This document shows, piece after piece, positions 8,959 to 56,775 of a stretch of DNA of 64,000 nt. The notes under the pieces were generated by a model. The model had not been told where the DNA came from and searched no databases. It saw only the letters and a list, made by a program, of their open reading frames with translations. Each line of letters opens with the position of its first letter. Within the stretch, counting starts at the first letter, position 1. The position numbers were made by a program, and so were the translations under genes. Origin of the DNA: a virus (taxonomy: Duplodnaviria > Caudoviricetes); the IMG/VR virus record IMGVR_UViG_3300031949_001696. One strand, given 5' to 3'.

Positions 8959-9606
8959 CTAACCGACGATGGGCCGACACTTCAGGACCGCGGAAGCGGC
9001 CACTGGGCGGATCCGTCGCGCGGGGTCTTCATGGTCCTGGTAGCTACGGATAGTGCCCTCGCGCCGCAACTCCTCCCGCGCTTGGCTCAGGAGCTTCGAG
9101 CACAGTGCTTGCACGCGTCGGGTCTTGGGACCAAGGTTGTGAACCGCGTGTAAGGACCCAGCACCGAACTGACCCCCACTCCCCTGGAGACGGGTCCAGT
9201 AGCGCTGACCGTCGTGATCGACAAGAAACTCGAAGCCGATGATCTCGTTCTTCGTGGAGGCGGCGGTTGCGATCGTCGAGTGCCCCGACCTCTTACTCTT
9301 CTTGCTGTTCAGCGCTTCGGCGATCTCACGATCTAGTTGAGCGGATGACTTTTTCGCCGTCTTCTTCTGTGTCGAGTAGTCGACACGCGTTCCTTTGACC
9401 CGCGCTGTCTCGAGCCAGCGCGGATGCGACCAGTTCCCGGCGGCTTCAGGCAGCGCGCGGTTCCGAATATACGCGTTGATGGTGTCGTTCCACGCTTGGC
9501 GCCGTCTCGGCTTGTCGGGAAAGCCGACCCTCTCGTGCTCGGCTATGCGCGGGAGAATTTCCGCGCGGAACATCTCCTCGAACTGGCTCTTGGTCATCTT
9601 CGACAT
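8959..9606 (-). CDS. Two-domain hypothetical protein with internal [11 protein letters not shown] tag
   Basis: ATG at 9606; [15 protein letters not shown] followed by GHST. Confidence 0.6.
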   Translation of the reverse strand: MSKMTKSQFEEMFRAEILPRIAEHERVGFPDKPRRRQAWNDTINAYIRNRALPEAAGNWSHPRWLETARVKGTRVDYSTQKKTAKKSSAQLDREIAEALNSKKSKRSGHSTIATAASTKNEIIGFEFLVDHDGQRYWTRLQGSGGQFGAGSLHAVHNLGPKTRRVQALCSKLLSQAREELRREGTIRSYQDHEDPARRIRPVAASAVLKCRPIVG

Positions 9607-9760
9607 GGATTCTTCCGATACTACTTCGCGAGTGCGTGCTCGCGCCAGAATGCGGCACGCGCGGCGGGATCTTTGCAGCTCGGATCGCCGGGCTCCTACG
9701 GAGCCGCCGGGCCGCCAAACGCGATATAGAGGCGTCGCAGCATTCGCATTTCTCCTCGTG

Positions 9761-10351
9761 CTACGCGCCGCCGTGCATGGCCCTCGTCGACCAGTAGAGG
9801 ATCGCCTCCGCGAACTGCGCGGCGGTGTACTCCGCCTTGGTGCCGCCTGGCAGCGCCAGGAAGTTTCTGGCCATCGCCATCGGTGACATCGGCTCGGGCT
9901 CGGCGCTCGTGCGCGCGTTGATGCTGACGATCTCGTAGGCGGTGTCAGCATCCGGGGTCTCGCCCTCTTCGACGAGAAGCGCACGGCTGTAGAGGATGAT
10001 GTCGACGGCGACGGCCTCGGTTTTGCGACCGATCGCTTGGACCTCGACGAACGCCGCTTCACCGGGCCGCCGCGCCGCGAACCGAGCGCGCAGGGGCGTC
10101 GTTTCGGTCAGCACGGTGACCCCGCTGTAGAATCGGAAGCCGGCGAAGCCCAGCGGGATGCTCAGCACCACCACACCCGGCTTGTAACCGTCCTTGGCGA
10201 TCGCATCGAGCTTGGCCGGCTCTTCCATGCACTTCTCGACGTGGACTTCGAGGGTGCGCCAGTCGGCGGTTTTGCCGATCGGATCGGCGAGGAAGCTGAA
10301 GGGTGACTCGGCGGTCTGCCGCTTCACGAACGCGTTGCACTTGATTCTCAT
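9761..10351 (-). CDS. Hypothetical protein, DUF3228-like
   Basis: F-V-x-R-Q start and C-terminal PMSPMAMARNFL..GGT; family assignment from memory. Confidence 0.5.
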   Translation of the reverse strand: MRIKCNAFVKRQTAESPFSFLADPIGKTADWRTLEVHVEKCMEEPAKLDAIAKDGYKPGVVVLSIPLGFAGFRFYSGVTVLTETTPLRARFAARRPGEAAFVEVQAIGRKTEAVAVDIILYSRALLVEEGETPDADTAYEIVSINARTSAEPEPMSPMAMARNFLALPGGTKAEYTAAQFAEAILYWSTRAMHGGA

Positions 10352-10463
10352 GGACTCGTCTTGTTCCTTTGGTAGTTGTTTAATGGAGTCGAACGCGCCC
10401 GGGTATGCCCCCGGGCAGGCTCCACGAGCGGGATCGATCCCTCGTGGTTCTTGGGGGCCATCG

Positions 10464-10871
10464 TCAGCCCGTTCGCGAATCCCCAGCACGCTCTCGGTCG
10501 CGAACTGCCGAGTGGCGCGGTGAGGCGCCGGGGGAAACTTGTTTCTTTTGCTCTTGAGACGTCTGTGCGCGCGGTTTCTGACAGAGGAATTTCTGGGCAT
10601 CGCGGAGCGCTGCTCTCCAGCCGTCGTGGCTCTCCGCACGCGTGTTGTCCGCGAGCGCTGCTTCTGCTTTCGCGATGAAGACTTCGACGGCCTGCTCGGG
10701 CGTCGTGTAGTAGTAGCGTCCGGCGTTCAGCTCGGACTTGGGAAGGAGCATGGTGAAGATGCTCTGCGCGCGAGGCTGAATGACGATCCAGTCGCGGCGG
10801 TGTTCGATCACTGCATGCGCCTCGATGCCGCTTGCGGGCGAATACGAGTAGACGTGGCGCGGCTTTTTCAT
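10464..10871 (-). CDS. Hypothetical protein
   Basis: GGAGA RBS, ATG at 10871. Confidence 0.45.
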   Translation of the reverse strand: MKKPRHVYSYSPASGIEAHAVIEHRRDWIVIQPRAQSIFTMLLPKSELNAGRYYYTTPEQAVEVFIAKAEAALADNTRAESHDGWRAALRDAQKFLCQKPRAQTSQEQKKQVSPGASPRHSAVRDRERAGDSRTG

Positions 10872-11070
10872 GGCGTCATCTCCACTGTCATCGGATCGGT
10901 AGGACGCGCCGCCCGGATCGGACAGCCGTTTGCCATCTCCGCGGCCGATCTTGTCGATTTCAACTCTCGTCATCTGCGAGTACGACGGCGAAAGGGCAGC
11001 AGATCTGACAGCAGGTTGGCGGTGATCTCTGAAAGCCGCGTCGAGACAAGCTTTTCATGGTAAAGATCGG

Positions 11071-11511
11071 TTGATGCCGTCTCATCCGCGCGTCAACGGA
11101 GGCGTCACCAGTGGCGACTCCCACGCGGCTGCGCGCGGCCGGCAAAGGCTTAAAATCTCCGGGCTCGGCTACGCTGCTTCTCGACATGGCATCGATGCGA
11201 CCGTCGAATCAGCACAGGCGGCGCGCAAGTTCCTACGCCAGAACGCTATCGAGTTCGTGGGGGCGTTACCCGGCGATCTCTTGAAGGGTCGGCGACTCGA
11301 CCGGCCAGGCGATGACGAGATGCTCTGCATCATGGCGATGGCCTACTCGTGCGCGCGGCACGGCGTCGATGCCGACGTGGGGATGGCCCGCGAGGGACTC
11401 GCCCTTTTGTGTCAGGCAGCGATCGACTTCGTCGAATCGCTACCGAAGGAAGATCAGCCGTCGAAGCGGGCGGCCGATTCGCATTTTCAACTCGACGGCG
11501 GCGCAGGATGA
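11071..11511 (+). CDS. Hypothetical helical protein with internal repeat (RHGIDA/RHGVDA, AIEFV/AIDFV)
   Basis: ORF track; stop overlaps next start. Confidence 0.5.
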   Translation: MMPSHPRVNGGVTSGDSHAAARGRQRLKISGLGYAASRHGIDATVESAQAARKFLRQNAIEFVGALPGDLLKGRRLDRPGDDEMLCIMAMAYSCARHGVDADVGMAREGLALLCQAAIDFVESLPKEDQPSKRAADSHFQLDGGAG

Positions 11512-11870
11512 GCGCGAAGCTGCCGAAGTCGTGGCCTCCGACGGCACGCCGCATCCTTTTGGACGCCGCACAGTTCTTCTATCGCCAGATGAACGAGCCG
11601 TTCGCCGTCTACGACGTGCACATGGACGAGGCCGTCGAGTGGGCGAACAAAGAACTTGAGGTGCGGCAGCGCGAGATCTACGAGGAGGCATCTCCGCGGT
11701 GGATCGACAAGTGGGAAAGCGGCAAGCTCGACGCCGAGATGAAGAAGGCAATCGACGAGACGTACGGTAGGCTCCGCCGCGCAGAGCGCGCGATTCGATC
11801 GCATTCCACCGCGAAGAAGCGCCCGCGGCAGCTCGACGCCGAGATCGCCCAGGCGCTCTCGAAGAGGTAA
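11508..11870 (+). CDS. Hypothetical protein with C-terminal RQLDAEIAQAL tag
   Basis: ATGA overlap with upstream gene; HSTAKKRPRQLDAEIAQAL. Confidence 0.6.
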   Translation: MSAKLPKSWPPTARRILLDAAQFFYRQMNEPFAVYDVHMDEAVEWANKELEVRQREIYEEASPRWIDKWESGKLDAEMKKAIDETYGRLRRAERAIRSHSTAKKRPRQLDAEIAQALSKR

Positions 11871-11916
11871 GATTGCACATGGGTCCTTTGACGCTTTCGA
11901 TCCAGGAGAAGACCGC

Positions 11917-12384
11917 GTGAGGGCCGGGTACGGGCGCGGATACTACGGCGAAGGTCAGCTCGCGCGCAGCGCCCCGCGTCGTCGGAGCTGGTTCACTGTT
12001 GTTGCCGTCCTCGGTGTCGGCGCCGCGGTGGTGTGGCTCTTGTGGCCGCGTGGATCGTCGCCCGAGCCTATGTACGGGGGCAAGGAGTCCGAAGCTCCTC
12101 CGCCTCCGCCTCCGCCGTCAGGAGCCCAGATCCAGATCAGTCCTCCGACGTCGTTGCTGCTCCAGATCAGCGCGCCCGCCGAGGCTTCTCCGCCCGGTGT
12201 GGCGGTGGGTGCCTTCCTCAAGCAGCTCGAGGACGACGCGCTCTTGCGTGGTTTTTCGTCTACCAAGGAGTACGAGGACTCGGTGATCGCGATCGCCAAG
12301 GAGCTTGGGGCCACGGGCACGAAGGTCATGCTCGCTCCGCATCTACAGCACCTCGCCCCGCGCTTGGGGTCTTCGGCGCCGTGA
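11917..12384 (+). CDS. Membrane-anchored Pro-rich protein
   Basis: Gly/Tyr-rich N-terminus, one hydrophobic helix, poly-Pro; AGGAG RBS. Confidence 0.55.
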   Translation: MRAGYGRGYYGEGQLARSAPRRRSWFTVVAVLGVGAAVVWLLWPRGSSPEPMYGGKESEAPPPPPPPSGAQIQISPPTSLLLQISAPAEASPPGVAVGAFLKQLEDDALLRGFSSTKEYEDSVIAIAKELGATGTKVMLAPHLQHLAPRLGSSAP

Positions 12385-14426
12385 GCGATCCCGCTTCGTC
12401 TGCCCGCCGCTTTGTCTGCCGCGCATGCGGCCACAGGCATGCCACCTGGGCAGCACGCTGTTCGAGCTGCCGCGCGCTGGAGGGACTCACCGTCGAGTTG
12501 ATCGAGGTGCCGGTCTTGCTTCCGGCTCTTCCGCCGCAGACGCAGAGTGTTCCGCAGGTGGTGGCGCCGGAGCCGTCACGTCCGCGTCTCATGATCGCGC
12601 GCGCGCCCGAGCCTGCTCTCGAAGATCCGGCCGAGGAGCTGGTGGACGTTGCCTCGCCGGCGTCGGTGCCACTCTCCGATGTCTCCGAGACGACGTTCGC
12701 GCGCGATTTGACGGGATTGACGCCGCTCGACTACGTGCTCGGGGGCGGCCTCGTCGTGGCCTCCGTCATCTTGCTTGCGTCTCCGCGAGGGATCGGCAAA
12801 TGCCTCGGCGGCGGAACTCCCGTGCTCATGTTTGACGGGCGCTCGCTGCCTGTTGAGCAAATTTTACCGGGTGATCGTTTGATGGGTCCCGATGGCAAGT
12901 CACGTACGGTTCTCGCGACGACCGCTGGTATCGGAGAACTTTTCCGAATTGATCCGATTAAGGGTGAGCCCTGGATTTGCAACGGTGCGCATGTACTCAC
13001 GCTGGTCAACGGCCATACCGACGAAGTGATTGACGTGCCGCTTAGTGAGTGGCTCGCGAAGACACCGCACTCCGATCTGCGGCGCTATGGAAAGTTGTTC
13101 AGCACAGGCATCAACACGTTCGGAGATTCGACCGCAAACGAGCAGCATCTTTTGCCGATCGACCCTTATTTCCTTGGAGTTTGGTTCGGTGATGGAACGA
13201 AATGGCGCATCGAACGGACAACGGGCGAACAGCTCGCGAAGATTCAAATTACCAAACCCGATCCTGAGATTCTTGCGTTGTGTGAGGAACAGGGACGTTT
13301 GTGGGGTCTTCGTGTGCATACATACGAGTCCGCAACCAAGCGCGCTTCATATCAGCTTGTCGCGAATGAAGCTCCAGAAGGTGAAGGACGTTGGGCACCA
13401 AATCCATTGCTGCGTGCCCTTCGCGATATCGTTGGACCGGAGGTCAAAGTCCCCGACGCGTATCTCCGAGCCCCGCGGGGCCCGCGCCTTCAGTTTCTAG
13501 CAGGCTGGTGCGATACGGATGGCGAACTTGCGGGCACAACCTTCGTTATTTCGCAAAAGCGTGAAGACTGGGCGCGTACCATCTGGTGGCTCGCGCGCTC
13601 TCTCGGTTTCTGCGCGACCATTAAAACGCGAACCTCTCATTACACACGACCTGACGGTTCGCGCTTTGAAGGAACATACTGGGTCGTATTTATCAGCGGC
13701 GATACAGATCAAATCCCCACGCGACTACCGCGCAAGAAAGCGCCGCCTCGACGACAGAAAAAAGTCGCGACGCGGACCGGATTTACTGTGCATTCCTTGG
13801 GCGAGGGCGCTTATTACGGTTTTTCGCTCGACAGTGATGGGCGCTTCCTGCTCGGGGACTTCACTGTCACACACAATTCATCGCTAGCGCTCCAGATGCT
13901 CAACGGACTCGGGCATCGCTGTCTGTACGTATCGGGAGAGGAGACACTTGAGCAGGTGGCCATGACGGCTCGCCGTATCGGCGCGGCCTCGAAGAAGGTC
14001 AACATGCTGCCCGAGAGGAATCTCTCCATGATCTTCGCCGAGGCGCGCGCGATCCGGGCACAGACGATCGTGATCGATTCGATCCAGAAGATGCGCTGTG
14101 ATGACGTGGGCGGTCGCGCCGGTTCGCCGGGACAGCTCAAGGAGTGCACGGCGCAACTGGTCGACTACGCCAAGAACAACAGGACGGCTCTCTGGCTCAT
14201 TGGACACACGACTTCCGATGGCGACATCGCGGGGCCCATGACGATCGAGCACGAGGTCGACGTGGTGCTCGAACTGACGCAAGGCGCAAAGTTTGACGGC
14301 AATGAGCGGATCCTCACGTGCTTGGGCAAGAACAGGTTCGGACCGAGTAACCTGGTGGGACACTTCGAGCTGACCGCCAAGGGTTTTGTCTCCGTCGACG
14401 CCGACGGGTGGAACGAGGAGCTGTGA
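12381..14426 (+). CDS. radA: RadA/Sms-like ATPase with intein; lacks C-terminal Lon-like domain
   Basis: N-terminal C4 zinc finger (CRAC..CSSC), LDYVLGGG, Walker A split by intein, YVSGEE, VIDSIQ, KNRFG. Confidence 0.85.
   Translation: MSDPASSARRFVCRACGHRHATWAARCSSCRALEGLTVELIEVPVLLPALPPQTQSVPQVVAPEPSRPRLMIARAPEPALEDPAEELVDVASPASVPLSDVSETTFARDLTGLTPLDYVLGGGLVVASVILLASPRGIGKCLGGGTPVLMFDGRSLPVEQILPGDRLMGPDGKSRTVLATTAGIGELFRIDPIKGEPWICNGAHVLTLVNGHTDEVIDVPLSEWLAKTPHSDLRRYGKLFSTGINTFGDSTANEQHLLPIDPYFLGVWFGDGTKWRIERTTGEQLAKIQITKPDPEILALCEEQGRLWGLRVHTYESATKRASYQLVANEAPEGEGRWAPNPLLRALRDIVGPEVKVPDAYLRAPRGPRLQFLAGWCDTDGELAGTTFVISQKREDWARTIWWLARSLGFCATIKTRTSHYTRPDGSRFEGTYWVVFISGDTDQIPTRLPRKKAPPRRQKKVATRTGFTVHSLGEGAYYGFSLDSDGRFLLGDFTVTHNSSLALQMLNGLGHRCLYVSGEETLEQVAMTARRIGAASKKVNMLPERNLSMIFAEARAIRAQTIVIDSIQKMRCDDVGGRAGSPGQLKECTAQLVDYAKNNRTALWLIGHTTSDGDIAGPMTIEHEVDVVLELTQGAKFDGNERILTCLGKNRFGPSNLVGHFELTAKGFVSVDADGWNEEL
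12801..13877 (+). mobile_element. Intein (359 aa) with LAGLIDADG-type homing endonuclease, inserted in the Walker A motif
   Basis: GK|CLGGGT...VTHN|S junctions; YFLGVWFGDG and FLAGWCDTDG blocks; visibly lower GC. Confidence 0.92.
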
Positions 14427-14428
14427 CG

Positions 14429-15073
14429 ATGCTCGAGCGTATCTCGACAGGTCTGCGTTCGCTCGATCACGTGCTCGGTGGTGGTCTTGTTGAAGCGTCG
14501 GTGGTTTTGCTCGCGTCTCCTCCGAACATTGGCAAGTCGAGCCTGTCGCTCCAGATGCTCGCCGACCTGGGGCACAGATGTCTCTACGCTTCTGGCGAGG
14601 AGACACGCGCTCATCTCGAAGGGATGGCGCGCCGCCTCGGTGTGCTAACGCCACGCCTCTCCGTGCGCTCCGAGCGAAACCTTGCGACGATCTTCACCCA
14701 CGCGCGCGAGACGCGCGCGCAGACGATCGTGGTCGATTCGATCCAGACGATGATCTGCGAGGATGTGAACGGTCGCCGCGGATCGCCTGCTCAGGTCAAG
14801 GAGTGCGTCTCGCGCCTGGTCCATTACGCCAAGACGAACAACACGACGATCTGGATCATCGGGCATGTCACGAGCGACGGTGACGTCGCGAACAAGACGA
14901 TCGAGCACGACGTCGACGTCGTGCTCAAGCTGTCGCGGGGAGCGAAGTTCAACGGCAACGAGAGGATCCTGCGCTGTCCGAGCAAGAACCGCTATGGGCC
15001 GACCAACGCGGTGGGCCATTTCGAGCTGACCGCCAAAGGTTTCGTTCCCGTCGACGCCGATGGATGGAACTAG
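14429..15073 (+). CDS. RadA/Sms-like ATPase core paralogue, intein-free, no zinc finger
   Basis: SPPNIGKSS, YASGEE, VVDSIQ, KNRYG; colinear with the upstream exteins. Confidence 0.8.
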   Translation: MLERISTGLRSLDHVLGGGLVEASVVLLASPPNIGKSSLSLQMLADLGHRCLYASGEETRAHLEGMARRLGVLTPRLSVRSERNLATIFTHARETRAQTIVVDSIQTMICEDVNGRRGSPAQVKECVSRLVHYAKTNNTTIWIIGHVTSDGDVANKTIEHDVDVVLKLSRGAKFNGNERILRCPSKNRYGPTNAVGHFELTAKGFVPVDADGWN

Positions 15074-16249: not shown

Positions 16250-16290
16250 TGATCGGGCGCCTTCCAACCAAGAACCGCCTCGGAATCAAG

Positions 16291-16770: not shown

Positions 16771-16809
16771 CGGCAGAACTGATGGTATCCCGTTCTTACT
16801 CTTGAAGCT

Positions 16810-26303: not shown

Positions 26304-26375
26304 GGGCCTCTAGTTCAACAGTAGAACGCTCGGCCTATTACCGAGATGTTGAGGGTGCAAATCCTTCGGGGCCTA
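26304..26375 (+). tRNA. tRNA-Ile(TAT)
   Basis: ctcgg-CCTATTA-ccgag; atypical C33 and U37. Confidence 0.65.
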
Positions 26376-26382
26376 CGATCAC

Positions 26383-26459
26383 GGTGCATGGAGCCAGCTG
26401 GAGACGGCGCTCGGATGTGGCCCGAGTTTCGGCGAGTTCGATCCTCGTCATGCACCCCA
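26383..26459 (+). tRNA. tRNA-His(GTG)
   Basis: G-1:C73, ctcgg-ATGTGGC-ccgag, encoded CCA. Confidence 0.85.
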
Positions 26460-26463
26460 GTTT

Positions 26464-26535
26464 CGAGCAGTGGCGAAGTGGCATCGCGCCGGTTCGGGGA
26501 ACCGGAAATCGCAGGTTCGATCCCTGCCTGCTCGA
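26464..26535 (+). tRNA. tRNA-Pro(GGG)
   Basis: ccggt-TCGGGGA-accgg (C33). Confidence 0.8.
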
Positions 26536-26612
26536 CGAAAGGAGGTTGCGGCCGATCTACTGTCAGATCGTTCGTGCAGGAGCGTCTAGTCTATAGAAGG
26601 AGAACGAACGCC

Positions 26613-27149
26613 ATGGAGCCGACACATCAGACTCTGGTCCTTTCGCAAGGCTACGAACCGGTCAAGATCGTTTCGTGGCAGCGCGCCATCACGCTGCTCT
26701 TCCTCGGTAAGGTCGAAGTGGTCGAGGAGTACGACCGCGGCATCAAGACGACGTCGCTCGTGATCAAGATCCCGTCGGTGGTGCGGCTCCTCAAGGCATT
26801 CCGTCGGTACCCAAAGCCGGTGAAGTTCTCACGGATCAACATCTACGGGCGCGACAAGTACACCTGCCAGTATTGCGGGACGAAGAAGTCGATCGGCGAG
26901 CTGACGTACGACCACGTTGTGCCGCGTTCGCGGGGTGGAAAGACAACGTGGACCAACATCGCCACGTGCTGCTCGGACTGCAATCGCCGAAAGGCGAATC
27001 GCACACCGGAGCAGGCCGGCATGCGGCTGCTCAAGGAGCCCGTGCTGCCGACCGCCACGCCGGTGCTGGTAGTGGCCGTGAGCCGTGAGTCGGCACCCGA
27101 CGCGTGGCGCGATTACCTGTACTGGACGAGCGAGTTGGACGAAGACTGA
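26613..27149 (+). CDS. HNH endonuclease (McrA-like)
   Basis: RDKYTCQYCG, TYDHVVPRSRGG, CCSDCNRRK; AGGAG RBS. Confidence 0.9.
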   Translation: MEPTHQTLVLSQGYEPVKIVSWQRAITLLFLGKVEVVEEYDRGIKTTSLVIKIPSVVRLLKAFRRYPKPVKFSRINIYGRDKYTCQYCGTKKSIGELTYDHVVPRSRGGKTTWTNIATCCSDCNRRKANRTPEQAGMRLLKEPVLPTATPVLVVAVSRESAPDAWRDYLYWTSELDED

Positions 27150-28654: not shown

Positions 28655-29134
28655 ATGAGACTCAAGCCGCCACGCACGCACTACCTTGGCAAGGTGGCCG
28701 GACTTTCCATCTACCTCGTCTCGGGTGTGGACGTTCGTAACACCACCGACATTGACTTCACGTGCGGCGGCAATGAGGCCGTCTACCCGAGCTACGTCCC
28801 GCCCGGCGAGATCTGGCTCGATGATGCCGCTGGGCCGTTCGATCGCACGGCGACAGCGCTGCATGAGATTGTCGAGCGCCATCAGATGATGACGTTCGGA
28901 AAGAACTACGAAGATGCGCACGAAGTCGCATCGGCGACGGAGCGGCCGTTCCGTCGTGAGCTGGCCAAAGCCCCGCCGAAGGCATTTGATCCGCGGCGCG
29001 TCGCGACGGCCTACCAGGCGTACCTGAAGAAACCCGGACGCCATCCCGTCGTTGACCGGCCGAACGATCCGCGGCGGGGAGCCAAGCAGATGGACCGCGA
29101 GATCGGGGAAGCGCTCGGGCGACGAGCGCGCTGA
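28655..29134 (+). CDS. Putative metal-binding (HExxE) protein with C-terminal QMDREIGEAL tag; paralogue of 36940-37407
   Basis: GEIWLD, ALHEIVERH, YEDAH. Confidence 0.6.
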   Translation: MRLKPPRTHYLGKVAGLSIYLVSGVDVRNTTDIDFTCGGNEAVYPSYVPPGEIWLDDAAGPFDRTATALHEIVERHQMMTFGKNYEDAHEVASATERPFRRELAKAPPKAFDPRRVATAYQAYLKKPGRHPVVDRPNDPRRGAKQMDREIGEALGRRAR

Positions 29135-35026: not shown

Positions 35027-35422
35027 ATGTCGCAAGCAGGCTCCAGGGGCGCAAGGAAGAAGAGTCCTGCGCAGCTCGACCGCGAGATCGCCGAGACGCT
35101 GCACGGCAAGTCGAAGAGCGGGCCTACCTATCTCTATGTTGAAGGCGTCGGACATCGCCTTCCGCATGGCTACGAGATCCACTGGAATTGGATCGCTCGT
35201 CGCGACGGTAAGAAGATCGACGGCGGGGCACTCACGGGGGGCGATCTTCCCGAGTTCTACGAGACGTGGCCTGATGCCCGTGGAGTAGCGGCTATCGTCG
35301 AGCAGATGACGAAGATCTTGCGAGAGTGGATTCCGTCTGGCGAGTTCGGTCGCGATCTCTCATCGAAGGTCAGCGTATCGCTCAGGAAATCGAGCAGCGA
35401 AGTGCCGATCCGGGGACGTTAG
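35027..35422 (+). CDS. Hypothetical protein with N-terminal [11 protein letters not shown] tag
   Basis: [15 protein letters not shown]; TAGAAT 6 nt before ATG. Confidence 0.6.
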   Translation: MSQAGSRGARKKSPAQLDREIAETLHGKSKSGPTYLYVEGVGHRLPHGYEIHWNWIARRDGKKIDGGALTGGDLPEFYETWPDARGVAAIVEQMTKILREWIPSGEFGRDLSSKVSVSLRKSSSEVPIRGR

Positions 35423-35456: not shown

Positions 35457-36128
35457 TTACGACAGGAACCGCTCCTCGGAGACGATCTCGGCGTCGATCA
35501 CGTCGAGGTGCGCGCTGCGCCACACGGGCGCAACGAGCGCTTGGCTGGAAGCGCGACGAGCGGCGGGACGGCGATCCGTCGTGACAGTCGGCGTGCGGTG
35601 CGGCGCGGGGGCCTCGACCGCCGCGCTGGTGCGGCTACGCGCACGGGTCGCGACGCGCCGCGCGTCCGCCTCGCGGCGCTTGTTCGTCGCGTCGCGCGCG
35701 AGCGCGATCACCGATCCGTTCGCGACTGCGTTGATCAGGATCAAGACTGCGAGCGCGATCGCACTCACCGCGCCCGTGGCCACCAGCATCACGCCCTCCA
35801 GGGCGAGTACGAAGCCGAGGGCCTTGCGCGAGTCGCCGAACGCCGCCTTGCCGAACTTGTAGACCGAGATCGCCGAGAAGCACGCACAGCCGAGCACGAC
35901 CGCGACCATCACCATCGCGAGTGACGTGTTCCCAGCGGACCAGGCTGCCGGGACCTGATCGTGGGCGAGGGTACGGCCGAACCACGGGACGAGGCCGCCG
36001 ATCAGGGCACCGATCAGCGCGGCGTGAGGATTGCGGATGGCGCATTCGAGCTGCGTGACGACGTCGGTGGTGGCCGACCGATCGACGACCTTGCGGGACC
36101 GCTTGCTACGCTTGCTGGCCTTGCTCAT
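35457..36128 (-). CDS. Multi-pass membrane protein with basic tails
   Basis: About four hydrophobic helices. Confidence 0.6.
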   Translation of the reverse strand: MSKASKRSKRSRKVVDRSATTDVVTQLECAIRNPHAALIGALIGGLVPWFGRTLAHDQVPAAWSAGNTSLAMVMVAVVLGCACFSAISVYKFGKAAFGDSRKALGFVLALEGVMLVATGAVSAIALAVLILINAVANGSVIALARDATNKRREADARRVATRARSRTSAAVEAPAPHRTPTVTTDRRPAARRASSQALVAPVWRSAHLDVIDAEIVSEERFLS

Positions 36129-36939: not shown

Positions 36940-37407
36940 ATGCCCAAGCCAAGACTGCCGCGTTTTCGTCTCTTGGGTAAGGTTGCCGGGCTCTCCGTCT
37001 ACCTCGTCTCCGGCGAACATGTCCGTGATCAGATCGACGTCGACTTCACCATGGGTGGCAACGAAGGCGCGTACCCGCACTATGTTCCGCCCGGCGAGAT
37101 CTGGATCGACGATGCCATGCATCCACTCGATCGCACCGCGACCGCGCTGCACGAGATCGTCGAGCGCGATCTCATGCTCCATCACGACATGAGTTACGAC
37201 CGCGCGCATGACGCGGCGAACGTGCGAGAGCGCGCGTTTCGGCAAGGGCTCGTCCACCATCACCCGAAGACGTTTGATGGGCGTCGTGTGGCCTTCGCGT
37301 ACCGCGTGTATCTGCGCTCTCGATCGTTGGGCGCATCGGGCGCATCGGGCAAGTCGTCACGACAGCTCGATCATGAGATTGCCGAGACGCTCGGACGTCG
37401 TCGTTAG
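36940..37407 (+). CDS. HExxE protein with C-terminal RQLDHEIAETL tag; paralogue of 28655-29134
   Basis: GEIWID, ALHEIVERD, YDRAH. Confidence 0.6.
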   Translation: MPKPRLPRFRLLGKVAGLSVYLVSGEHVRDQIDVDFTMGGNEGAYPHYVPPGEIWIDDAMHPLDRTATALHEIVERDLMLHHDMSYDRAHDAANVRERAFRQGLVHHHPKTFDGRRVAFAYRVYLRSRSLGASGASGKSSRQLDHEIAETLGRRR

Positions 37408-40346: not shown

Positions 40347-40799
40347 GTGAGTGATAAAATCGCGAGGCTCGGCATCGAGCGCGACAACAACCTGATGTAC
40401 TACATCAAGAACGACGGTAATGTCTGGGCCACTCCCCGCAAGCAGAAGGGACAGCCCAAGGGCAAGGCCCAGAAGGTCGCAGAGACGGGGCTCGAGCTGG
40501 ACTACAGCCGCTATCTGTACTTCCTCGATGGCGACGGCGACGTCGCGCGCAAGGAGCGCGCCCTGGGCGGTGGTCGTAAAGCGAAGGCCAAGGCGGCCAA
40601 GCCGACCAAGGCGGCGACCGCAGCTCCAGCGACTCCGAAGAAGACGGGAACGAAGACCGAGGCAGAACTCGACGCCGATATCGCCGAGTGCCTCGCTCAG
40701 GCGAAGAAGAAGGCTGGGAACGGCAACGGCACCAAGCCCGCCAGCAAGCCTGTAACGAAGACGAAGAAGGCGAAGACGCCGAAGAAGAAGCGCCGCTAG
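40347..40799 (+). CDS. CC1-like chromatin/DNA-binding protein with Lys/Ala-rich histone-H1-like tail
   Basis: Two repeats of K[IV]A..G[IL]E.D...YY/YF...DG.V; AGGAG RBS; tag AELDADIAECL. Confidence 0.65.
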   Translation: MSDKIARLGIERDNNLMYYIKNDGNVWATPRKQKGQPKGKAQKVAETGLELDYSRYLYFLDGDGDVARKERALGGGRKAKAKAAKPTKAATAAPATPKKTGTKTEAELDADIAECLAQAKKKAGNGNGTKPASKPVTKTKKAKTPKKKRR

Positions 40800-48986: not shown

Positions 48987-49059
48987 CGGATCTCCGTTTT
49001 GGAGCAGCTACGAGGATAGCATTCGCGCGGGGGCCGACGCGAGATAGTCGCGGGACTGG

Positions 49060-49836
49060 CTACTCGAGCTCGTGCGCAAAGAGGACGATACCCTGCCCCG
49101 CATCGTTGTATTCGCGCGCCCGGCGTTTCATGGCGTTCCAGATCGCGTTCGACAGCTTCGCGTCGTAGCCGGTTCCGAAGCCTTTGGGAGGATCGACATG
49201 GACTCCCTCGTCGAACCAGCCAACGCCGTGACCGAGCGACTGCATCGCTCCATAGTACCCGGCGAGTTCCGCGGAGAACTTGGCGGCGATCTCGTTCAGC
49301 TCCGCATCCGTGAGTTTCTTCTTCGCAGCCGTGGTGAACTTCTTGCCGACCGCACGAGCCGCTGCCGGTGGATCTGGCAGGACGTTTTCCCACGAGCCTC
49401 CGGCGCGCGGCGACAGCGCTCGTCGAGCATCGTCAGATTCGAGGTTCTCGACTTCGGTGGCGTAGCCATCGCCCCAGAACGCGTTCGTCGCCCCTTCGGT
49501 GAAGGAATCCCAGTCGTAGCTGTGCGTGCTTACCAGGCCTGCTTGCTTGTCGAAGACGATGCGTACGGACTTTGGCACCTTGCGGATGGCCTTCGAGAAG
49601 TCGTCCGGCATCTCCGCAGATCCGTGCTCTTTGCGGATGTCGCGCACGAGTGCCGCGGCCGTCGCCGGATCGTGTTCGAGAAGCGCGTCCCTCGCGACGT
49701 CCCACGATGCTTCTGCCGGAACCGTCGCGACCATCGTGGCGTGGTGGCGCTGTCGCGGTTGGCGTCGTCGTTCGAGCGCCTGGGCAATCTCTTTGTCGAG
49801 CTGGGCTCGCGACTTTCTTTGAGAGCTGCGCTTCAC
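49060..49836 (-). CDS. Hypothetical protein with N-terminal AQLDKEIAQAL tag
   Basis: RKSRAQLDKEIAQAL..HHATM; GHGVGWFD. Confidence 0.6.
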   Translation of the reverse strand: MKRSSQRKSRAQLDKEIAQALERRRQPRQRHHATMVATVPAEASWDVARDALLEHDPATAAALVRDIRKEHGSAEMPDDFSKAIRKVPKSVRIVFDKQAGLVSTHSYDWDSFTEGATNAFWGDGYATEVENLESDDARRALSPRAGGSWENVLPDPPAAARAVGKKFTTAAKKKLTDAELNEIAAKFSAELAGYYGAMQSLGHGVGWFDEGVHVDPPKGFGTGYDAKLSNAIWNAMKRRAREYNDAGQGIVLFAHELE

Positions 49837-50385
49837 GGTTAGTTCCTTGCCTGTCCGGTTAGAGTCATGTTCGCCACTTGTTCCAAATAGCTAGCGCTTC
49901 CGGTGTTTGCGGGGGCACATCTTCGGCTGGGCAGTCTAGATCGTGTGCGCCGAATGCTTCGACGTAAGGCGTGTCGCCATCGCCGTCGCCGGGGGCGGTA
50001 CCGCAAGTGCAGGCCGGAATCACGTGAGCTTCCTCGCCGAATGGCGAGCGAAGCGCAGTCTCGATGTCGTCCGTTATGTCGTCCGTTATTCCGACGTCGG
50101 GCGCCTTGGGTGTCAACCGGATAAGCATGGTTAGTTCCGTTCCCGAGGCGAGGGCTTTTTGTTTGTGCCGACGATCGCCCCGACGGCTACGCTGACGACG
50201 AAGACTCCGATCAAGAAGATCCAGTTCATGCGACATGTTTCTTCCGCGATCGCCCGCAGAGGAAGCACCCCGTGTACGCGCGATCACCGCTCGCATACGG
50301 GGTGTCACCGGCGCTGAGGTAGGCGTGATCGAGGACCACGGCGCGAGGGTCAGCCTTCTTGGACGTGTCCTTCTCGCGCTGCACG

Positions 50386-50934: not shown

Positions 50935-51185
50935 CGACGTCTCCCGCCGCCGCGCTGGATGCCGAGTAGCTCGTAGATGTAGCCGCGCGTGAGACCCGAG
51001 TTGGCCGCCGGCCAGCCATACCGCGCGCGCCAGTCGTCGATCGTCTTCAGGATGCCGGGGTAGCGCTTGTCCTTCACGAGTTTCATCGCCTCGGGAAGTG
51101 TCAGACCAAACTTCGTCATGTCGAACTTCGCGGCCAGCCGGAAGTCGGCTTCGGTGAGGACGTCGCCCATCTCGTTTCGCTTCAT
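50931..51185 (-). CDS. Hypothetical protein
   Basis: ATGA overlaps at both ends. Confidence 0.5.
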   Translation of the reverse strand: MKRNEMGDVLTEADFRLAAKFDMTKFGLTLPEAMKLVKDKRYPGILKTIDDWRARYGWPAANSGLTRGYIYELLGIQRGGGRRR

Positions 51186-51691
51186 CGGTACTTCCAGAGG
51201 TCTGCCAGGTCGGTCGTCGCGCCGACGCCCTTGTAGCCTTCGATCGATCGGATCTTCGCACGATCACCCTCGATCGCAACGACGACGAAGGTGCCTCCGT
51301 AGCCGTCTTTGTAGCGGACGAGGTCTCCCACCTGGATCTTTGTGCTGCGCCCCGCGATCGACTTCTTCATCGTCGCGTGCGCGCGCGATGTCGGCGAGGA
51401 TTTCTTTGAGCGCGGCGACCGACGAATCAAGAAGCCCGTCAGGTCCTCGTCGTACTCCGCCTCGTCGCTGATTCCGCCGATCTCGTGATCGGCGAACGCG
51501 AGCGCGCTCGACGCGACTTCGTCGTACGCCTTGGGCGAATCGTACGCGATGCCGGGCCCGAAGCCGGCATACGCGGGATTCACGATGCCTCGCCACAGGA
51601 GCTTGCCGCCACGGCTCACGGCTGTGCGGTAGTGGTTCCTGTCGTCGTAGACGATGCTGATCTGGAGGCTGCCTGAGTAACGCTTGGCCAT
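51182..51691 (-). CDS. Two-domain hypothetical protein (C-terminal SH3/KOW-like) joined by a HATMKK linker
   Basis: IQVGDLVRY. Confidence 0.55.
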   Translation of the reverse strand: MAKRYSGSLQISIVYDDRNHYRTAVSRGGKLLWRGIVNPAYAGFGPGIAYDSPKAYDEVASSALAFADHEIGGISDEAEYDEDLTGFLIRRSPRSKKSSPTSRAHATMKKSIAGRSTKIQVGDLVRYKDGYGGTFVVVAIEGDRAKIRSIEGYKGVGATTDLADLWKYR

Positions 51692-52685: not shown

Positions 52686-53045
52686 ATGAGCGCCTGGAGC
52701 AAGATCGACGAGCTTTGCCGTAGCGTGGCCGACCGTCCCGTCATCGAGATCGAGGCCGGTCCGATCAAGACGGTCAAGGACGCGCAGGCCGCTCTCAAGG
52801 ACATCGACTTCAAGCCGGATCGTCGCGTCGTCATGGGCTGGGAGATCCTTTTGTCGCGGCGCAAGCAAGATGGCGTCGTGCTCTGGCACTTCTCGGCCAA
52901 GCTTCATCCGCACGGCAGATCGTCGACGGAGAACGACTGGAAGGTCCTCGGCAAGATCGCCGCCCGCGTCAAAGCTCCTCGTGATCCGGTGCTCACACCA
53001 GAGGATCCGAGCGCGGTGATCCACTGGTCGTGGACCGAGCAGTGA
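52686..53045 (+). CDS. Hypothetical protein
   Basis: ORF track. Confidence 0.45.
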   Translation: MSAWSKIDELCRSVADRPVIEIEAGPIKTVKDAQAALKDIDFKPDRRVVMGWEILLSRRKQDGVVLWHFSAKLHPHGRSSTENDWKVLGKIAARVKAPRDPVLTPEDPSAVIHWSWTEQ

Positions 53046-53049
53046 TGCC

Positions 53050-53403
53050 ATGCGCGCCGTCGATCAGACGACCTACGGATCCGCCGATGGCAACTGTTTC
53101 AGCGCGTGCGTCGCGTCGATCCTGGAGATTCCGCTCGAAGAGGTCCCGCGTTTTATGGGTGTCAGCTGGCCGTTTTTGCGATGGCTCGCGGACCGCGGCT
53201 TGTCGGCGTCGCGCTACAAGCGTGTCGACTACGTACCGTTGGGCTACTCGATCGCGACTGGGTCTTCGATGCGCTTTGCGGGCAAGATGCACGCGTGCGT
53301 CGCGCTCGATGGAATCGTCGTCCATGATCCACATCCCAGCCGCGAGGGTCTTCCCTTCGGTGTCGTGGACTACATCGTGATCCACGAATTCCGCGGCCTC
53401 TGA
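53050..53403 (+). CDS. Phage protein with papain-like Cys/His/Asp pattern
   Basis: GNCFSACVASIL, HACV, HDPHP. Confidence 0.55.
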   Translation: MRAVDQTTYGSADGNCFSACVASILEIPLEEVPRFMGVSWPFLRWLADRGLSASRYKRVDYVPLGYSIATGSSMRFAGKMHACVALDGIVVHDPHPSREGLPFGVVDYIVIHEFRGL

Positions 53404-53501
53404 CCCGTCGACCCGTCGGGGCCGTCGGGGATCGGCATAACTGCACGTCGGCGAGAGGAAGGGACTGCTCGCGGCCAGGCTTCTTGAGGTAAACCTGCGG
53501 C

Positions 53502-54059
53502 ATGCAGATGCGGATGACCGACGTCGATCACCTGGCCACGTCTACCGACATGGTGGATGTCTTGAAGCAGCTCACGAAGATCATGCGCGACGTCGAGTCG
53601 CTGCCCGACAACGCGCAAACGCGCTTCTGGGACGACACGCAGCAAGATATCGGCGAGGTTTCTGTCGAGGATCTTCGCGTCGGTCAAATGAGCACGCGCT
53701 CGGTCACCGTGCTCTACAACATCCTCGCCAACATGTGCGGCCCCAAGCTCGCCGAGATGGTGAACGGACAGATCACCGAATACTACGAGCGCATGCTGGA
53801 GCAGCTGAAGACGGTCTCCCAGTGGGACACGTTCCTCGACGAGCAGTTCGAGGAGGCCAAGAGTGCGGGACGTGAAGAAAGCCTCGTGGCAGAGGTGACG
53901 CTACACGGTGCCCGTACAATCGGACAGGGCACCGTGCGACGTGTCGGCGGCAACTCGAAGCTCCTGACGTTGACGACGCCGGATCGTACGGTGCGTCACT
54001 TCTCGAGCAAGGATGTCAGCATGATGGTGATCACGCCGACAGCGGACGCGACGCTCTGA
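53502..54059 (+). CDS. Hypothetical protein
   Basis: ORF track. Confidence 0.5.
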   Translation: MQMRMTDVDHLATSTDMVDVLKQLTKIMRDVESLPDNAQTRFWDDTQQDIGEVSVEDLRVGQMSTRSVTVLYNILANMCGPKLAEMVNGQITEYYERMLEQLKTVSQWDTFLDEQFEEAKSAGREESLVAEVTLHGARTIGQGTVRRVGGNSKLLTLTTPDRTVRHFSSKDVSMMVITPTADATL

Positions 54060-54122
54060 TCGTCCTGATCACGTGGCGCCGCAGATCGTTCGCGGTGCAA
54101 CACCGGTGTTGGATGTAAGCTG

Positions 54123-54506
54123 TTGCACGTGTCGAGGCGCTACGTCGCGGTGATCATCGAAGACGCACATGGACGCGTGCTGCTTCTCCTACGCGGACCT
54201 ACGGCGCCGTGGATGCCGAACCGCTGGAACTTGCCCGGCGGCGGAGTCGAGCACGGCGAATCGACCTTCGATGCCGCGCGGCGTGAGACGCTCGAAGAGA
54301 CGGCGCTGCGCGTTTATTCGCTCTCGCCGATCACGCGGATCGGCGAGCTCGACGTGTTCCGCGCCGATGATTGGGAAGGCCGCGTGCGCCTGGTCGACCG
54401 CGAGCACACGCGTTCGGCGTGGGTGCCCAGAGAGATCGCGTGGACGTGGGACCTGATCCCGCCGCAGCGCGAAGCGTTGCGCTACTACGCGCGCGCCTCA
54501 GCGTAG
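54123..54506 (+). CDS. NUDIX hydrolase
   Basis: Nudix box [21 protein letters not shown]. Confidence 0.85.
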
Positions 54507-54938
54507 CGTCTTGAGCGCCGCGGCGACGGTCTTGACGCGGTGCTGCTTCTCGACGCTCGGGACTAGCTCTTTCAGGCGCTCTCCGTTACTGCCCTGGAGG
54601 ATCAGATCGACGGCCACGCGCTCTGCGTCTTCTAGTTGATCGAGCAGGTCGCGCGGCGGCTTGGTGAAGCGGACGGCTTCGTACGAGTACCAGATCGCGC
54701 CGCTCCGACCGTCTGACGTCCGCGAGACGAGGAAGGCGACCTCGCCGGGTTCGGACGGGCGCTCCTTGTCGAAGAAGTGCATGCCACCGGACGTGTTCAC
54801 GCCGACGACGTAGCCGAAGCGTTTGCCGCGTGTGTTGTCTCCTCGCGTCTTGAACAAGATCTCGACGCGCTTGCCGGGCTTGGTCCAGCTCGTCGTTCCA
54901 GGCGCCTTAGACATCTCGCGTACGGAGGGTCCGCTCAT
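54498..54938 (-). CDS. Hypothetical protein
   Basis: ORF track, overlaps with neighbours. Confidence 0.45.
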
Positions 54939-55397
54939 AGGGGTACCAAGCTCGTCGCGTCGAGCCAGCCGCTCACGTCGCGTTGGCTCCGCAAGTGTGC
55001 TCGCCAGTACGGATTGCCACGCGTCCCGAGGTTCTTGACCTCGTCGACGATCAGCGTCGCATCTTTGTAGAAGGGCGGCATGCGGAAGTCGGATACGACG
55101 ACGTCGCCGGGCGAGAGTGGCGGTATTCCACGAGGTCCACGAGGCACGGCTCTTGGACTTTAGCCTCGCATAGCCAGTTTCTTGAAGCCACTTCCCGCGA
55201 TCAGCTACGCTAGATCCATGCTCAAGCGCACCCAGATCATCGTGCCGATGGGCGCGTGTCCCTACAATCCGCCCGTCATTCCGACGAGCACCGTTGTTCT
55301 CTTGAGCATCGATACGGGGCCGCTGCCGATCTGCCAGGCGCTGCCGTGCTTCTCGGGTCGGCGACGGCGATGCCGGTAGATCTGATAGGCTGACCTC

Positions 55398-55847
55398 GTG
55401 ACCAAGTCCACCAAGCAGCTTGAGGATGACATCGCGGAGTCACTCGCAACCGCGAAGGCTCGCGAGATCTCAGAGCGGCGCATCGCGGCCCTGATCGCGA
55501 AGGGGGAAGACGTTCGCAATACGCCGGCGTGGCGCGACGCGATGTCCGAAAGCCGGATGATTCGCTTTCGATCGGGACCAACTCGGCCCGGTATTGACCG
55601 CTCCAAGCACACGCGTGTCGACATCCGCTGGTACGCGATCCCCAACGAGAACAAGGCATCTGGCGGGTTCCTCCCCGTGATCGAAGAGGACGGCAAGGTC
55701 CGCGGCGATACGTGGTCTGGCCGCGGTTACGGCAAGGCCGAAGCCGAAGCGATGGCAGAAGCGAAGGCTCACGAAGCCGCATCGCGGTTCACTGGAGATT
55801 GGAACGTTACCGTCAGGAAGGGCCGAGCCAAGGAGCACGCCCGGTGA
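55398..55847 (+). CDS. Hypothetical protein with N-terminal KQLEDDIAESL tag
   Basis: TAGGCT 6 nt before GTG. Confidence 0.55.
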   Translation: MTKSTKQLEDDIAESLATAKAREISERRIAALIAKGEDVRNTPAWRDAMSESRMIRFRSGPTRPGIDRSKHTRVDIRWYAIPNENKASGGFLPVIEEDGKVRGDTWSGRGYGKAEAEAMAEAKAHEAASRFTGDWNVTVRKGRAKEHAR

Positions 55848-56455
55848 AGCGCAAGTACGGCAAGAAGGCATCCGAGAAGGTCGAGCGCGCGCTGCACGAG
55901 ATGAAGCGCGGCACGCTACGGAGCGGTCGATCGGGTAGGAAGGTCACGAGTCGCGCGCAGGCGATCGCGATTGGTCTTTCGCAAGCGCGCCGCGCGGGCG
56001 GCAAGGTACCGCCTGCGCCTGGGCACGCCACGAAGTATCGGCCAAAGTACGGTGATGAGGCGGGTGCCTGGGAGAGTGGCTTCCAGTACGGATCGGAGGC
56101 CGCCCGCCACGAGACGCGCGCGACCGCGCGTGCGATCTTGGGCCAGCTTCGAGCGCAGGCGCGTACGGATTTCGATCGTGGTCAGGTCGCGGCGTACGAG
56201 CGCATGCTCGGTGATCATGGCTCCACGTCGCGTCACCACGCCAGCCGGAAGAAGTACCCGTACATCGCGTACTGGGTTCGCACCCGCGGCGGTCCGCGCA
56301 GCTCGTGGGACATCATGCCCATCTACGTCCTCGGTACGACGACGCGCGCTGACGAGGGCATCGTCGGTCATGATCTGCGCGTCCGCCCGCTCCATCTTGG
56401 CAAGGGTCCCTACACGGTGGTCATCTCGCCCGATGACGTGGAAGATCGGCCGTGA
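55844..56455 (+). CDS. Modular protein: DUF6496-like basic N-terminal domain plus two further modules
   Basis: KVERALHEMKRGTLRSG..KVTSRAQAIAIGLS; GHATK and HHASRKK junctions. Confidence 0.6.
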   Translation: MKRKYGKKASEKVERALHEMKRGTLRSGRSGRKVTSRAQAIAIGLSQARRAGGKVPPAPGHATKYRPKYGDEAGAWESGFQYGSEAARHETRATARAILGQLRAQARTDFDRGQVAAYERMLGDHGSTSRHHASRKKYPYIAYWVRTRGGPRSSWDIMPIYVLGTTTRADEGIVGHDLRVRPLHLGKGPYTVVISPDDVEDRP

Positions 56456-56775
56456 AGACGATCGGACAGACGAGCAGCGGCAAGCCGATCTATGCCGCTT
56501 TCCAGTTGCATCGGAACTTCGACGGTTGGACGGCTGACGATCACGCCGATGCCGCCGAGGTGCATCGCGGCGCGGTTCGCAGTGACATCAAGACGAACGT
56601 GTCCATGCACGAGAACTCTGCGGCGCTCCACGGCGAAGAGATGCAGCGGATCTACAGGGCGGTCGAGAAGCTGGGCTTGGCGCCCGCCGCGGGCAAGAAG
56701 AAGAGTCACGCGCAGCTCGACCGCGAGATCGCCAAAGCGCTAGCTGGCCGTCGGACAGCTAGTAGCAGACGCTGA
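56452..56775 (+). CDS. His-rich hypothetical protein with C-terminal [11 protein letters not shown] tag
   Basis: [17 protein letters not shown]. Confidence 0.6.

Follow-up and report, generated by a model that had tools for sequence, protein, structure and literature searches.

A portable helical peptide that behaves like an address label on small proteins of huge soil phages

Nine small proteins encoded in the window (the whole 64,000-nucleotide stretch of the Caudoviricetes record IMGVR_UViG_3300031949_001696 that was analysed) carry a tag of 15 residues that behaves like an address label and has not been described before. The explanation that we prefer, with a probability of roughly 0.55, is that the tag is a portable docking helix read by one lineage-specific partner. 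The tag is present throughout a group of related phages, is conserved as a peptide on proteins that are otherwise dissimilar, and is bordered by a second short element, H-[AS]-T.

We located the tags with a profile HMM run against the six-frame translation of the window, and all cores reported here are in frame within real ORFs. Four tags lie at the C end of their carriers: KKRPRQLDAEIAQAL at 11814..11858 (+) in the 120-aa protein of gene 11508-11870 (33.7 bits), RRGAKQMDREIGEAL at 29072..29116 (+) in the 159-aa protein of gene 28655-29134 (36.9 bits), GKSSRQLDHEIAETL at 37348..37392 (+) in the 155-aa protein of the paralogous gene 36940-37407 (36.9 bits), and a 15-residue copy at 56698..56742 (+) in the 107-aa protein of gene 56452-56775 (41.5 bits). 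Three are N-terminal, namely a 15-residue copy at 35057..35101 (+), near the start of the 131-aa protein of gene 35027-35422 (43.7 bits), RKSRAQLDKEIAQAL at 49774..49818 (-) in the 258-aa protein of gene 49060-49836 (37.4 bits), and a divergent copy, TKSTKQLEDDIAESL, at 55401..55445 (+), at the very N end of the 149-aa protein of gene 55398-55847 (33.4 bits). The remaining two are internal: a 15-residue copy at 9310..9354 (-) in the 215-aa two-domain protein of gene 8959-9606 (40.3 bits), and the divergent TKTEAELDADIAECL at 40650..40694 (+), which sits within the Lys/Ala/Pro-rich tail of the 150-aa protein of gene 40347-40799 (37.2 bits). An earlier note on this DNA had assigned the nine peptides to the N end (35056, 49800 and 55404), the C end (11815, 29081, 37351 and 56698) or the interior (9330 and 40653) of their carriers, and each was found in frame and placed as described; at 40653 only a Lys-rich tail follows the tag. 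The note had also called the carriers unrelated apart from one paralogue pair, and masking the tag left a relationship between just these two, 28655 and 36940. The phage itself is an uncultivated soil phage of roughly 268 kb in which about one gene in ten is tagged.

The tag separates cleanly from background. The profile gave exactly nine matches in the window, at 33-44 bits, with none between 8 and 33 bits, and the highest score among reversed or shuffled ORFs was 6.5 bits. Across 649 kb of the window and related loci, 195 matches scored 14 bits or higher; reversed or shuffled controls gave none, and profile scores are sharply bimodal. A 12-residue tag pattern that occurs three times in the window gave no match when 596 Gb of prokaryote genomes and IMG/VR were searched, and QLDREIAEAL, searched as a check on how common the peptide is in unrelated proteomes, has 7 matches in the same 596 Gb, none with a basic flank. 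The earlier note had named two outcomes that would refute a peptide reading, equal frequency in unrelated high-GC proteomes and conservation as a DNA repeat, and neither refuted it. Identity between copies is 0.66, 0.74 and 0.48 at codon positions 1, 2 and 3, so that the third position is the most variable; serine is encoded by both TCN and AGY codons, and in 115 of 305 comparisons identical residues are encoded by differing codons. Since identical residues use different codons and third-position identity is low, the tag is not a DNA repeat, and it is selected as a peptide. The codon comparison, the pattern counts in genomes, and the profile and shuffled controls together refute the reading of the tag as repeated DNA or as low-complexity similarity arising by chance at high GC; nothing was found in its favour, and we give it next to no weight.

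A profile search of 1.84 billion representatives recovered the tag from at least 737 protein clusters at E ≤ 0.001, all of them metagenomic, and many matches lie on contigs of 160-461 kb. The observation of the earlier note is confirmed, and the note had understated the feature in three respects: the tag is clade-wide, it has a second element in its flanks, and C-terminal placement, the most frequent in the window, is the rarest across the clade (142 database representatives: 49 N-terminal, 93 internal and 5 C-terminal tags). The tag is confined to one lineage of huge soil phages. Among 185,579 species genomes none contains the motif, IMG/VR has next to no copies of it, and pattern matches in cellular genomes were not confirmed as relatives. 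GenBank phages yielded no match either to 10 kb of the window in a near-identity DNA search or to a conserved carrier of 186 aa in a tblastn search.

On related contigs, tagged genes lie in extended series of very small, overlapping ORFan genes, the majority of them beginning with the tag, and these runs resemble early or accessory regions and not structural modules. No promoter common to the regions upstream of the nine window carriers was obvious. Such early-like runs of small accessory genes, together with the sigma region 4 or HTH proteins found among the carriers, would suit a host-takeover handle, in which the tag docks small early proteins on a conserved host protein such as RNA polymerase, a chaperone or a protease. 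The absence of the 12-residue pattern from cellular genomes speaks against that explanation, as it means that no host protein uses the same handle, and we regard host docking as unlikely. The same absence favours a reader encoded by the phage.

The consensus reads (H-[AS])-T-K-K-[ST], followed by 12 residues and a short basic stretch, after which H-[AS]-T often recurs. Neither in the nine carriers of the window nor in 293 relatives does a Pfam, PHROG or Atlas family match over the tag, and a full-text literature search for the peptide returned no relevant paper; we found no printed description of it. The flanking H-[AS]-T motifs are a second element of the tag system: counted from the first Leu of 158 tags, they are enriched at -10/-9 (23 cases) and at +14 to +21 (~30 cases), where 0.16 would be expected per position. 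In the window, HST lies 14 residues past the final Leu of the tag at 9310..9354 (9274-9282, -) and directly before the tag at 11814..11858 (11802-11810, +), and HAT follows the tag at 49774..49818 (49735-49743, -). Such motifs also occur as linkers on their own. An HAT-MKKS linker lacking the helix (51371..51379, -) lies between two domains of the 169-aa protein 51182-51691, in which the basic half of the cassette is used alone, and an HAT-K linker (56024..56032, +) lies past the DUF6496 domain of gene 55712-56455, with a second linker, RHHASRKK, further along the same protein. The end of this gene is overlapped by the tagged gene 56452-56775.

Carriers are short (median length ~185 aa) and diverse: 175 distinct carrier ORFs gave ~175 clusters of flanking segments, and ~94% of 293 scanned carriers have no Pfam family. 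Among them are regulators (Sigma70_r4, HTH_8, UPF0175), while ART-PolyVal/PARP and ParB_N were each found in 1 of 47 carriers. The tag sits at a protein end or at the junction between shuffled domains, and some proteins have two or three copies. Relatives of the 11508-11870 protein have the same domain and tag, then an H-A-T motif and an added C-terminal domain; relatives of the 55398-55847 protein combine its C-terminal domain with different N-terminal ones, the tag lying where the two meet; and DUF6496 and the tag, which belong to separate genes in the window (55712-56455 and 56452-56775), are found within one protein in relatives. In the family of 36940, one relative (L047:2923-3411, family alignment A9) is tagged at its N end instead of its C end, and in some families only part of the members are tagged. 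The tag is therefore portable and independent of position, as the earlier note had proposed.

Tags at the junctions of shuffled modules, and the many arrays of genes that all start with one, could be read as traces of the shuffling itself, that is, a leader or junction peptide that spread with cassettes, or a translation-start context, in either case with no function of its own. Conservation at the amino-acid level with free synonymous change speaks against such a scar, as do C-terminal tags kept across diverged orthologues and the 186-aa carrier family, in which conservation is 0.85 in the tag, 0.68 in the adjacent indel-rich linker and 0.79 in the domain. C-terminal and internal copies mean that start-codon context cannot explain the tag, and we consider a functionless peptide highly improbable.

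The same modules being found both fused and split also bears on a processing or turnover signal, in which a protease or unfoldase would read the helix and cut at H-[AS]-T, freeing fused domains or timing their destruction. The strong enrichment of H-[AS]-T at fixed distances on both sides of the tag and its solitary use between domains would fit, and cleavage into units has been proposed for polyvalent phage proteins (PMC5512222). Yet no protease is linked to the tag, N-terminal tags start right after Met with no upstream H-[AS] motif, and the metallopeptidase-like paralogue pair, 28655 and 36940, gave no significant match in fold and family searches. That family shows weak zincin-type matches (BepA, and lugdulysin at Z 4.8) and Atlas leads to M78 and SprT-like families at 0.79; for want of a significant match, the metallopeptidase reading stays a lead only. 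We judge a processing signal unlikely as an explanation of the whole cassette, and the idea that H-[AS]-T motifs are sites at which cargo is released is speculative.

Structure models are consistent with the amphipathic helix and basic flanks that the earlier note had described. In the AlphaFold2 model of the 28655-29134 protein, a confident domain (residues 1-125) is followed by a linker (126-142) and a tag helix (143-158) at pLDDT ~50, and a second, unrelated carrier is modelled with a separate tag helix at residues 6-18, also at pLDDT ~50; in both, the low-confidence helix stands beside domains with pLDDT above 90. The models depict a detached helix on a flexible, variable linker, not packed against its carrier. 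Fold searches with the 186-aa carrier family returned generic helical-bundle matches only (Z ≤ 7.5). Conserved positions of the tag (Q, L, D, E, I, A and the final L) account for roughly two thirds of the surface of the helix, a pattern that points to insertion into the groove of a common reader. Substitutions one helical turn apart are coupled, Asp2 to Gln being accompanied by Ala6 to Asp in 6 of 6 tags as against 3 of 156 others, and this covariation may stem from one variant that spread by duplication.

We envisage that a basic, Ser/Pro-capped start leads into a helix of ~13 residues, which would insert into a groove of one common reader protein. Such docking would bury the hydrophobic stripe L-I-L and pair the flanking Asp and Glu with basic residues. 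Every tagged protein or domain would thereby be brought to the same partner or place, and the tag could be freely gained, lost and moved between genes. That there is a single reader is our inference. An amphipathic helix with oppositely charged flanks, present two or three times in some proteins, might alternatively act as a self-association or condensate 'sticker', with tagged proteins binding each other and no separate reader. A helix of 13 residues is short for a stable bundle, and its conserved residues, which take up about two thirds of the surface and include Asp, Glu and a small Ala, suit a folded groove better; we hold such self-association to be very unlikely. Co-folding of four copies of the 32-residue cassette scored 0.11 (mark 0.42), a result that counts neither way.

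We also compared the tag with known short peptides. The Pup helix, PIP box, MIT-interacting motif, paxillin LD motif and ParA-stimulating peptides were rejected on spacing or sequence, and the bacterial sliding-clamp motif QL[SD]LF was rejected because in the tag R-E, and never L-F, follows Q-L-D. In several related loci, the gene immediately upstream of the 186-aa carrier encodes a member of a membrane-protein family, which we considered as a candidate reader and rejected, as only synteny links it to the tag; proteins of this family share a conserved C-terminal peptide of their own, ..DAEIVSEQKLLA, that is not picked up by the tag profile.

The encapsulation peptides of microcompartments and the cargo-loading peptides of encapsulins are amphipathic helices of ~15-18 residues on poorly conserved linkers, which lie at either protein end or between domains and direct unrelated cargo to one shell. 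The tag resembles them as a predicted helix on a variable, indel-rich linker, at an end or between domains. In contrast, its carriers are phage ORFans rather than enzymes, it has no likeness to the GSL-type peptides of encapsulins, and no shell proteins (BMC-H/BMC-P) were found among the window proteins scanned with Pfam or in precomputed gene tables.

In phage T4, diverse defence proteins can have only the capsid targeting sequence (CTS) in common (PMC3012670). The CTS of IPI-III and Alt is like the tag in being a short peptide that is the sole common feature of diverse, fast-changing small accessory or defence proteins (PMC3012670), and in being movable to other proteins. However, the CTS is strictly N-terminal, has ~10 residues and is cut off after Glu by the prohead protease, whereas the tag is longer, occurs at the N end, internally or at the C end, and has H-[AS]-T flanks. 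The two have no demonstrated sequence relationship, and extreme N-terminal placement is not a consistent property of the tag. As for the protease site (L/I)-x-E, I-A-E is common, but only 103 of 162 distinct tags have the Glu, the others having Gln, Ala, Asp, Lys and other residues there.

Polyvalent proteins, for which delivery with DNA and proteolytic release have been proposed (Iyer et al. 2017, PMC5512222), share with the carriers effector modules shuffled in variable order, including ART-PolyVal and ParB-type domains. They differ in being large, with 2-15 conflict domains (MPTase, ART, DdrB-ParB, MuF and others) where carriers mostly have one or two small domains, largely without a Pfam family, and no conserved linker peptide is described for them.

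The earlier note had suggested virion cargo, a viral compartment or binding to one hub protein, all of which stay tentative as purposes. If the tag is a docking helix, the favoured purpose, at slightly under even odds, would be loading into the virion for co-delivery with DNA, as the T4 CTS does. The carriers with ART-PolyVal/PARP and ParB_N domains would fit it, such domain types occurring in packaged, injected phage proteins (PMC5512222). Counting against it, ~9 tagged of roughly 100 window genes is a large set for virion cargo, and the position of tagged runs in early- or accessory-like regions weighs against docking for this end; the regulator carriers fit cytoplasmic action as well as injection. 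Less probable is that carriers are recruited to a hub or factory of host or virus, and some other destination is slightly less probable again.

A broader and doubtful proposal is that the clade has a sorting code, in which the QLDREIAEAL helix cassette with cleavable H-[AS]-T borders on soluble proteins, and one or more further tags, among them R-G-x-Y-G on single-pass membrane proteins, jointly mark about a tenth of the proteome for a virus-built destination (the virion interior for injection, or a viral compartment), and new effector genes would join by acquiring a tag. If there is one reader, the tag would mark a functional class of hundreds of otherwise unannotatable ORFan proteins, spanning an uncultivated clade of soil phages of 200-460 kb, and their common destination could be tested with one peptide. 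It would also offer a compact tag with which foreign proteins could be loaded or recruited, wherever in the carrier it is placed. Through the H-[AS]-T flanks and the modules that occur both fused and split, protein shuffling and perhaps processing can be studied, and a single reader would reveal by what means huge phages attach new accessory genes to a delivery or assembly route already in place.

Regular-expression scanning of all six frames, together with translation from stop to stop, recovered in frame all nine copies of the ~15-residue tag that the earlier note listed in this soil phage. They lie in ORFs with coding-type GC3, and 9 of the ~100 putative genes of the window carry the tag. 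A looser pattern added a single window match, at 4074, which is unrelated and due to chance. A profile HMM trained on these nine and one metagenomic copy scored the nine at 33–44 bits and the rest of the window at ≤8 bits. Across the window and all fetched loci, 195 real matches reached ≥14 bits vs. 6.5 bits for the best decoy (reversed or residue-shuffled ORFs). With the tag masked, the only BLAST similarity among the nine carriers was that between the paralogues starting at 28655 and 36940, and none of the nine has a significant Pfam family.

A DNA repeat could produce such a pattern irrespective of reading frame, and the codons argue against it. Compared in pairs, the nine sites have identities of 0.66 (codon position 1), 0.74 (position 2), and 0.48 (position 3), and the codon differs at identical residues in 115 of 305 comparisons: serine is encoded by both TCN and AGY, and leucine by CTA, CTC, CTG, and CTT. 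Since third positions vary most and identical residues differ in codon, conservation acts at the protein level, with amino acids kept while synonymous codons vary freely. The sites lie on both strands.

The full consensus extends beyond the peptide first described: (R/H)-H-[AS]-T-K-K-[ST] leads into 12 residues that are followed by 5–12 mostly basic or small residues and, after these, often by R-x-H-[AS]-T. Of 158 tags, 23 have H-[AS]-[TIV] at −10/−9 relative to the first leucine and ~30 have it at +14 to +21, an enrichment over the ~0.16 expected per position. More speculatively, the H-[AS]-T borders may serve as processing sites. H-A-T-K-K-S, the basic half, is also used without the helix, as an interdomain linker (e.g., window 51371–51379 and 56024–56032). 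A minority flavour, L-Q-R-E-I-D-E-V-L, is found on the same contigs as the main one. Tags with Gln2 carry Asp6, one turn away, in 6 of 6 distinct tags vs. 3 of 156 others (Fisher p = 4e-9, although the events are possibly non-independent).

The helix proposed in the earlier note was predicted by AlphaFold2 in both carriers modelled. The most widespread carrier is a family of 185–189 aa (61 sequences compared, with a member encoded on the contig from which the window comes), in which mean conservation is 0.85 for the tag (residues 3–17), 0.68 for the indel-rich linker that follows, and 0.79 for the domain. In its model the domain has pLDDT >90, and residues 6–18 form a helix of their own with pLDDT ~50. 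The model of the window protein encoded at 28655–29131 is confident for the domain (1–125) and of low confidence for the linker; residues 143–158 are helical, again with pLDDT ~50. Whether the tag is N-terminal, as in the first carrier, or C-terminal, as in the second, the model thus predicts a helix that stands apart from the domain and is flexibly tethered to it. Projected onto a helical wheel, the conserved residues (Q, L, D, E, I, A, and the last L) span ~240 degrees and only three positions vary freely; so broad a face would suit a helix buried in the groove of a folded partner.

Position independence, also claimed earlier, holds for N-terminal, internal, and C-terminal copies and is borne out by domain swaps around the tag in relatives. 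In three metagenomic proteins (P0021, P0104, and P0113), the same N-terminal domain and the tag precede three different C-terminal domains, while P0009, P0021, and window gene 55398 share a C-terminal domain behind differing N-terminal parts. Relatives of window gene 11508 retain its domain and tag and add an H-A-T motif and a further domain. In the 28655/36940 family the tag is at the C end in five members and at the N end in one (L047:2923–3411), and in several families only part of the members have it. In the window, a DUF6496 gene (55712–56455, +) and a tagged 107-aa gene (56452–56775, +) are adjacent with a 4-nt overlap; the relatives P0095 and P0107 each combine DUF6496 with a middle domain, the tag, and a C-terminal domain in one polypeptide. 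The arrangements resemble a series of gene fusions or fissions.

A word-indexed search with the tag profile, run over 5.8 billion proteins, gave 435 matches at E ≤ 10 (~120 at E ≤ 0.001). All are unnamed metagenomic proteins, and many lie on contigs of 160–461 kb, one of which is that of the window itself (267,828 bp). With a 66-sequence profile, an exhaustive search over 1.84 billion 50%-identity representatives found, at E ≤ 0.001, at least 737 clusters. The 142 best new representatives have a median length of 185.5 aa; their tags comprise 93 internal, 49 N-terminal, and 5 C-terminal copies, and 5 of the proteins have two or more tags. Scanning of JGI metagenome contigs gave 59 tag loci; together with the window these hold 175 distinct tagged ORFs, whose flanking segments fall into ~175 BLAST clusters, and therefore well over 100 unrelated domains bear the tag. 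Tagged genes are embedded in long stretches of compactly arranged small ORFans, and some related contigs carry arrays of successive small genes that mostly have the tag at their start: L037 has 10 tags in 5.9 kb, L049 9 in 9.5 kb, L042 9 in 11.3 kb, and L060 8 in 16 kb. A 159-aa tagged protein (L054:7550–8026, +) is identical on at least 24 contigs of up to 302 kb from many samples, so at least one tag-bearing phage is widespread.

Most carriers resist annotation: ~94% of 293 relatives had no Pfam family, and the remainder matched DUF6496 (8), HTH_8 (2), PARP/ART-PolyVal (1), ParB_N (1), UPF0175 (1), SPOR (1), and EFP_N (1). One Sigma70_r4 protein bears two tags, and further ParB/Srx-like motifs were seen by eye in arrays L037 and L049. 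In the 28655/36940 pair, H-E-x-x-E, H, and E are invariant and the core consists of a sheet and two helices. These features suggest a putative small metal-dependent hydrolase; the pair matched nothing significantly in fold and feature searches. In the carrier at 40347–40799 (+), a long Lys/Ala/Pro-rich, histone H1-like tail surrounds a divergent tag and suggests, from its composition, nucleic-acid binding. No recognisable enzyme among the window proteins scanned is tagged; untagged neighbours include an HNH endonuclease (26346–27149, +), a KaiC/RecA-like ATPase downstream of a DnaB-like gene (14408–15073, +), and a DUF3228 protein (9761–10639, −).

A second short peptide, R-G-x-Y-G, lies close to the start of small window ORFs at 11935 (+), 20621 (+), and 34602 (−), followed in those at 11935 and 34602 by a hydrophobic TM-like stretch; the genome seems to have more than one tag. 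A conserved four-TM membrane-protein family (window 35460–36113, −; relatives include L009:6069–6836, L017:2654–3304, and L071:5023–5820) has its own conserved C-terminal peptide (..DDVIDAEIVSEQKLLA) behind a variable Pro-rich linker, and the tag profile does not recognise this tail. Its gene lies just upstream of the 186-aa tagged family in L009, L010, L011, and L017, and upstream within ~700 bp in L001, L024, and L071. On L001, the sole IMG/VR contig with the tag, this module is near two paralogues of ~750 aa with pectate-lyase-like beta-helix domains (PF12708; 573–2804, −, and 2811–5090, −), which may be receptor-binding or depolymerase proteins.

The tag might also have been common in unrelated high-GC proteomes, and this was checked. 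A degenerate DNA pattern for QLDREIAEAL matched 7 times in 596 Gb (185,579 prokaryote species genomes), mostly within long ORFs (≤880 aa) and without the basic flank, and once in IMG/VR, where a 10.8-kb contig has an N-terminal copy. A 12-residue pattern had no match in the same 596 Gb or in IMG/VR vs. 3 in the 64-kb window. With looser peptide patterns, no relative was confirmed among the species genomes, and IMG/VR again gave just that one contig. Because these scans confirm no relative among the species genomes, the tag is not a general trait of GC-rich proteomes and is absent from sequenced cellular genomes, prophages included. It is a portable peptide module of one lineage, accepted at any position, kept under purifying selection, and displayed on a flexible tether.

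In the simplest mechanism, all carriers would dock on one putative reader. Because cellular genomes lack the motif, a phage-encoded reader is likelier than mimicry of a host ligand, and a host protein is the less likely target. The case for virion loading as the destination is circumstantial. Functionally, the nearest precedent is the capsid targeting sequence of T4, which alone is conserved among diverse internal defence proteins (PMC3012670), and the ART-PolyVal and ParB-type modules among carriers, like the fused and split module architectures, recall polyvalent proteins, which phages package and inject (PMC5512222). However, the carriers are very numerous, their neighbourhoods are early-region-like, and some are of regulator type. 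The tag differs from the T4 sequence in position and at the Glu cut site and belongs with it on neither count, and its likeness to microcompartment encapsulation peptides is architectural only. Our searches turned up no paper with the peptide, nor a model for it in Pfam or PHROG. The tag is an undescribed form of a known kind of signal, the shared targeting peptide, and stands out by its unusual freedom of position, its composite cassette, and its very large set of carriers.
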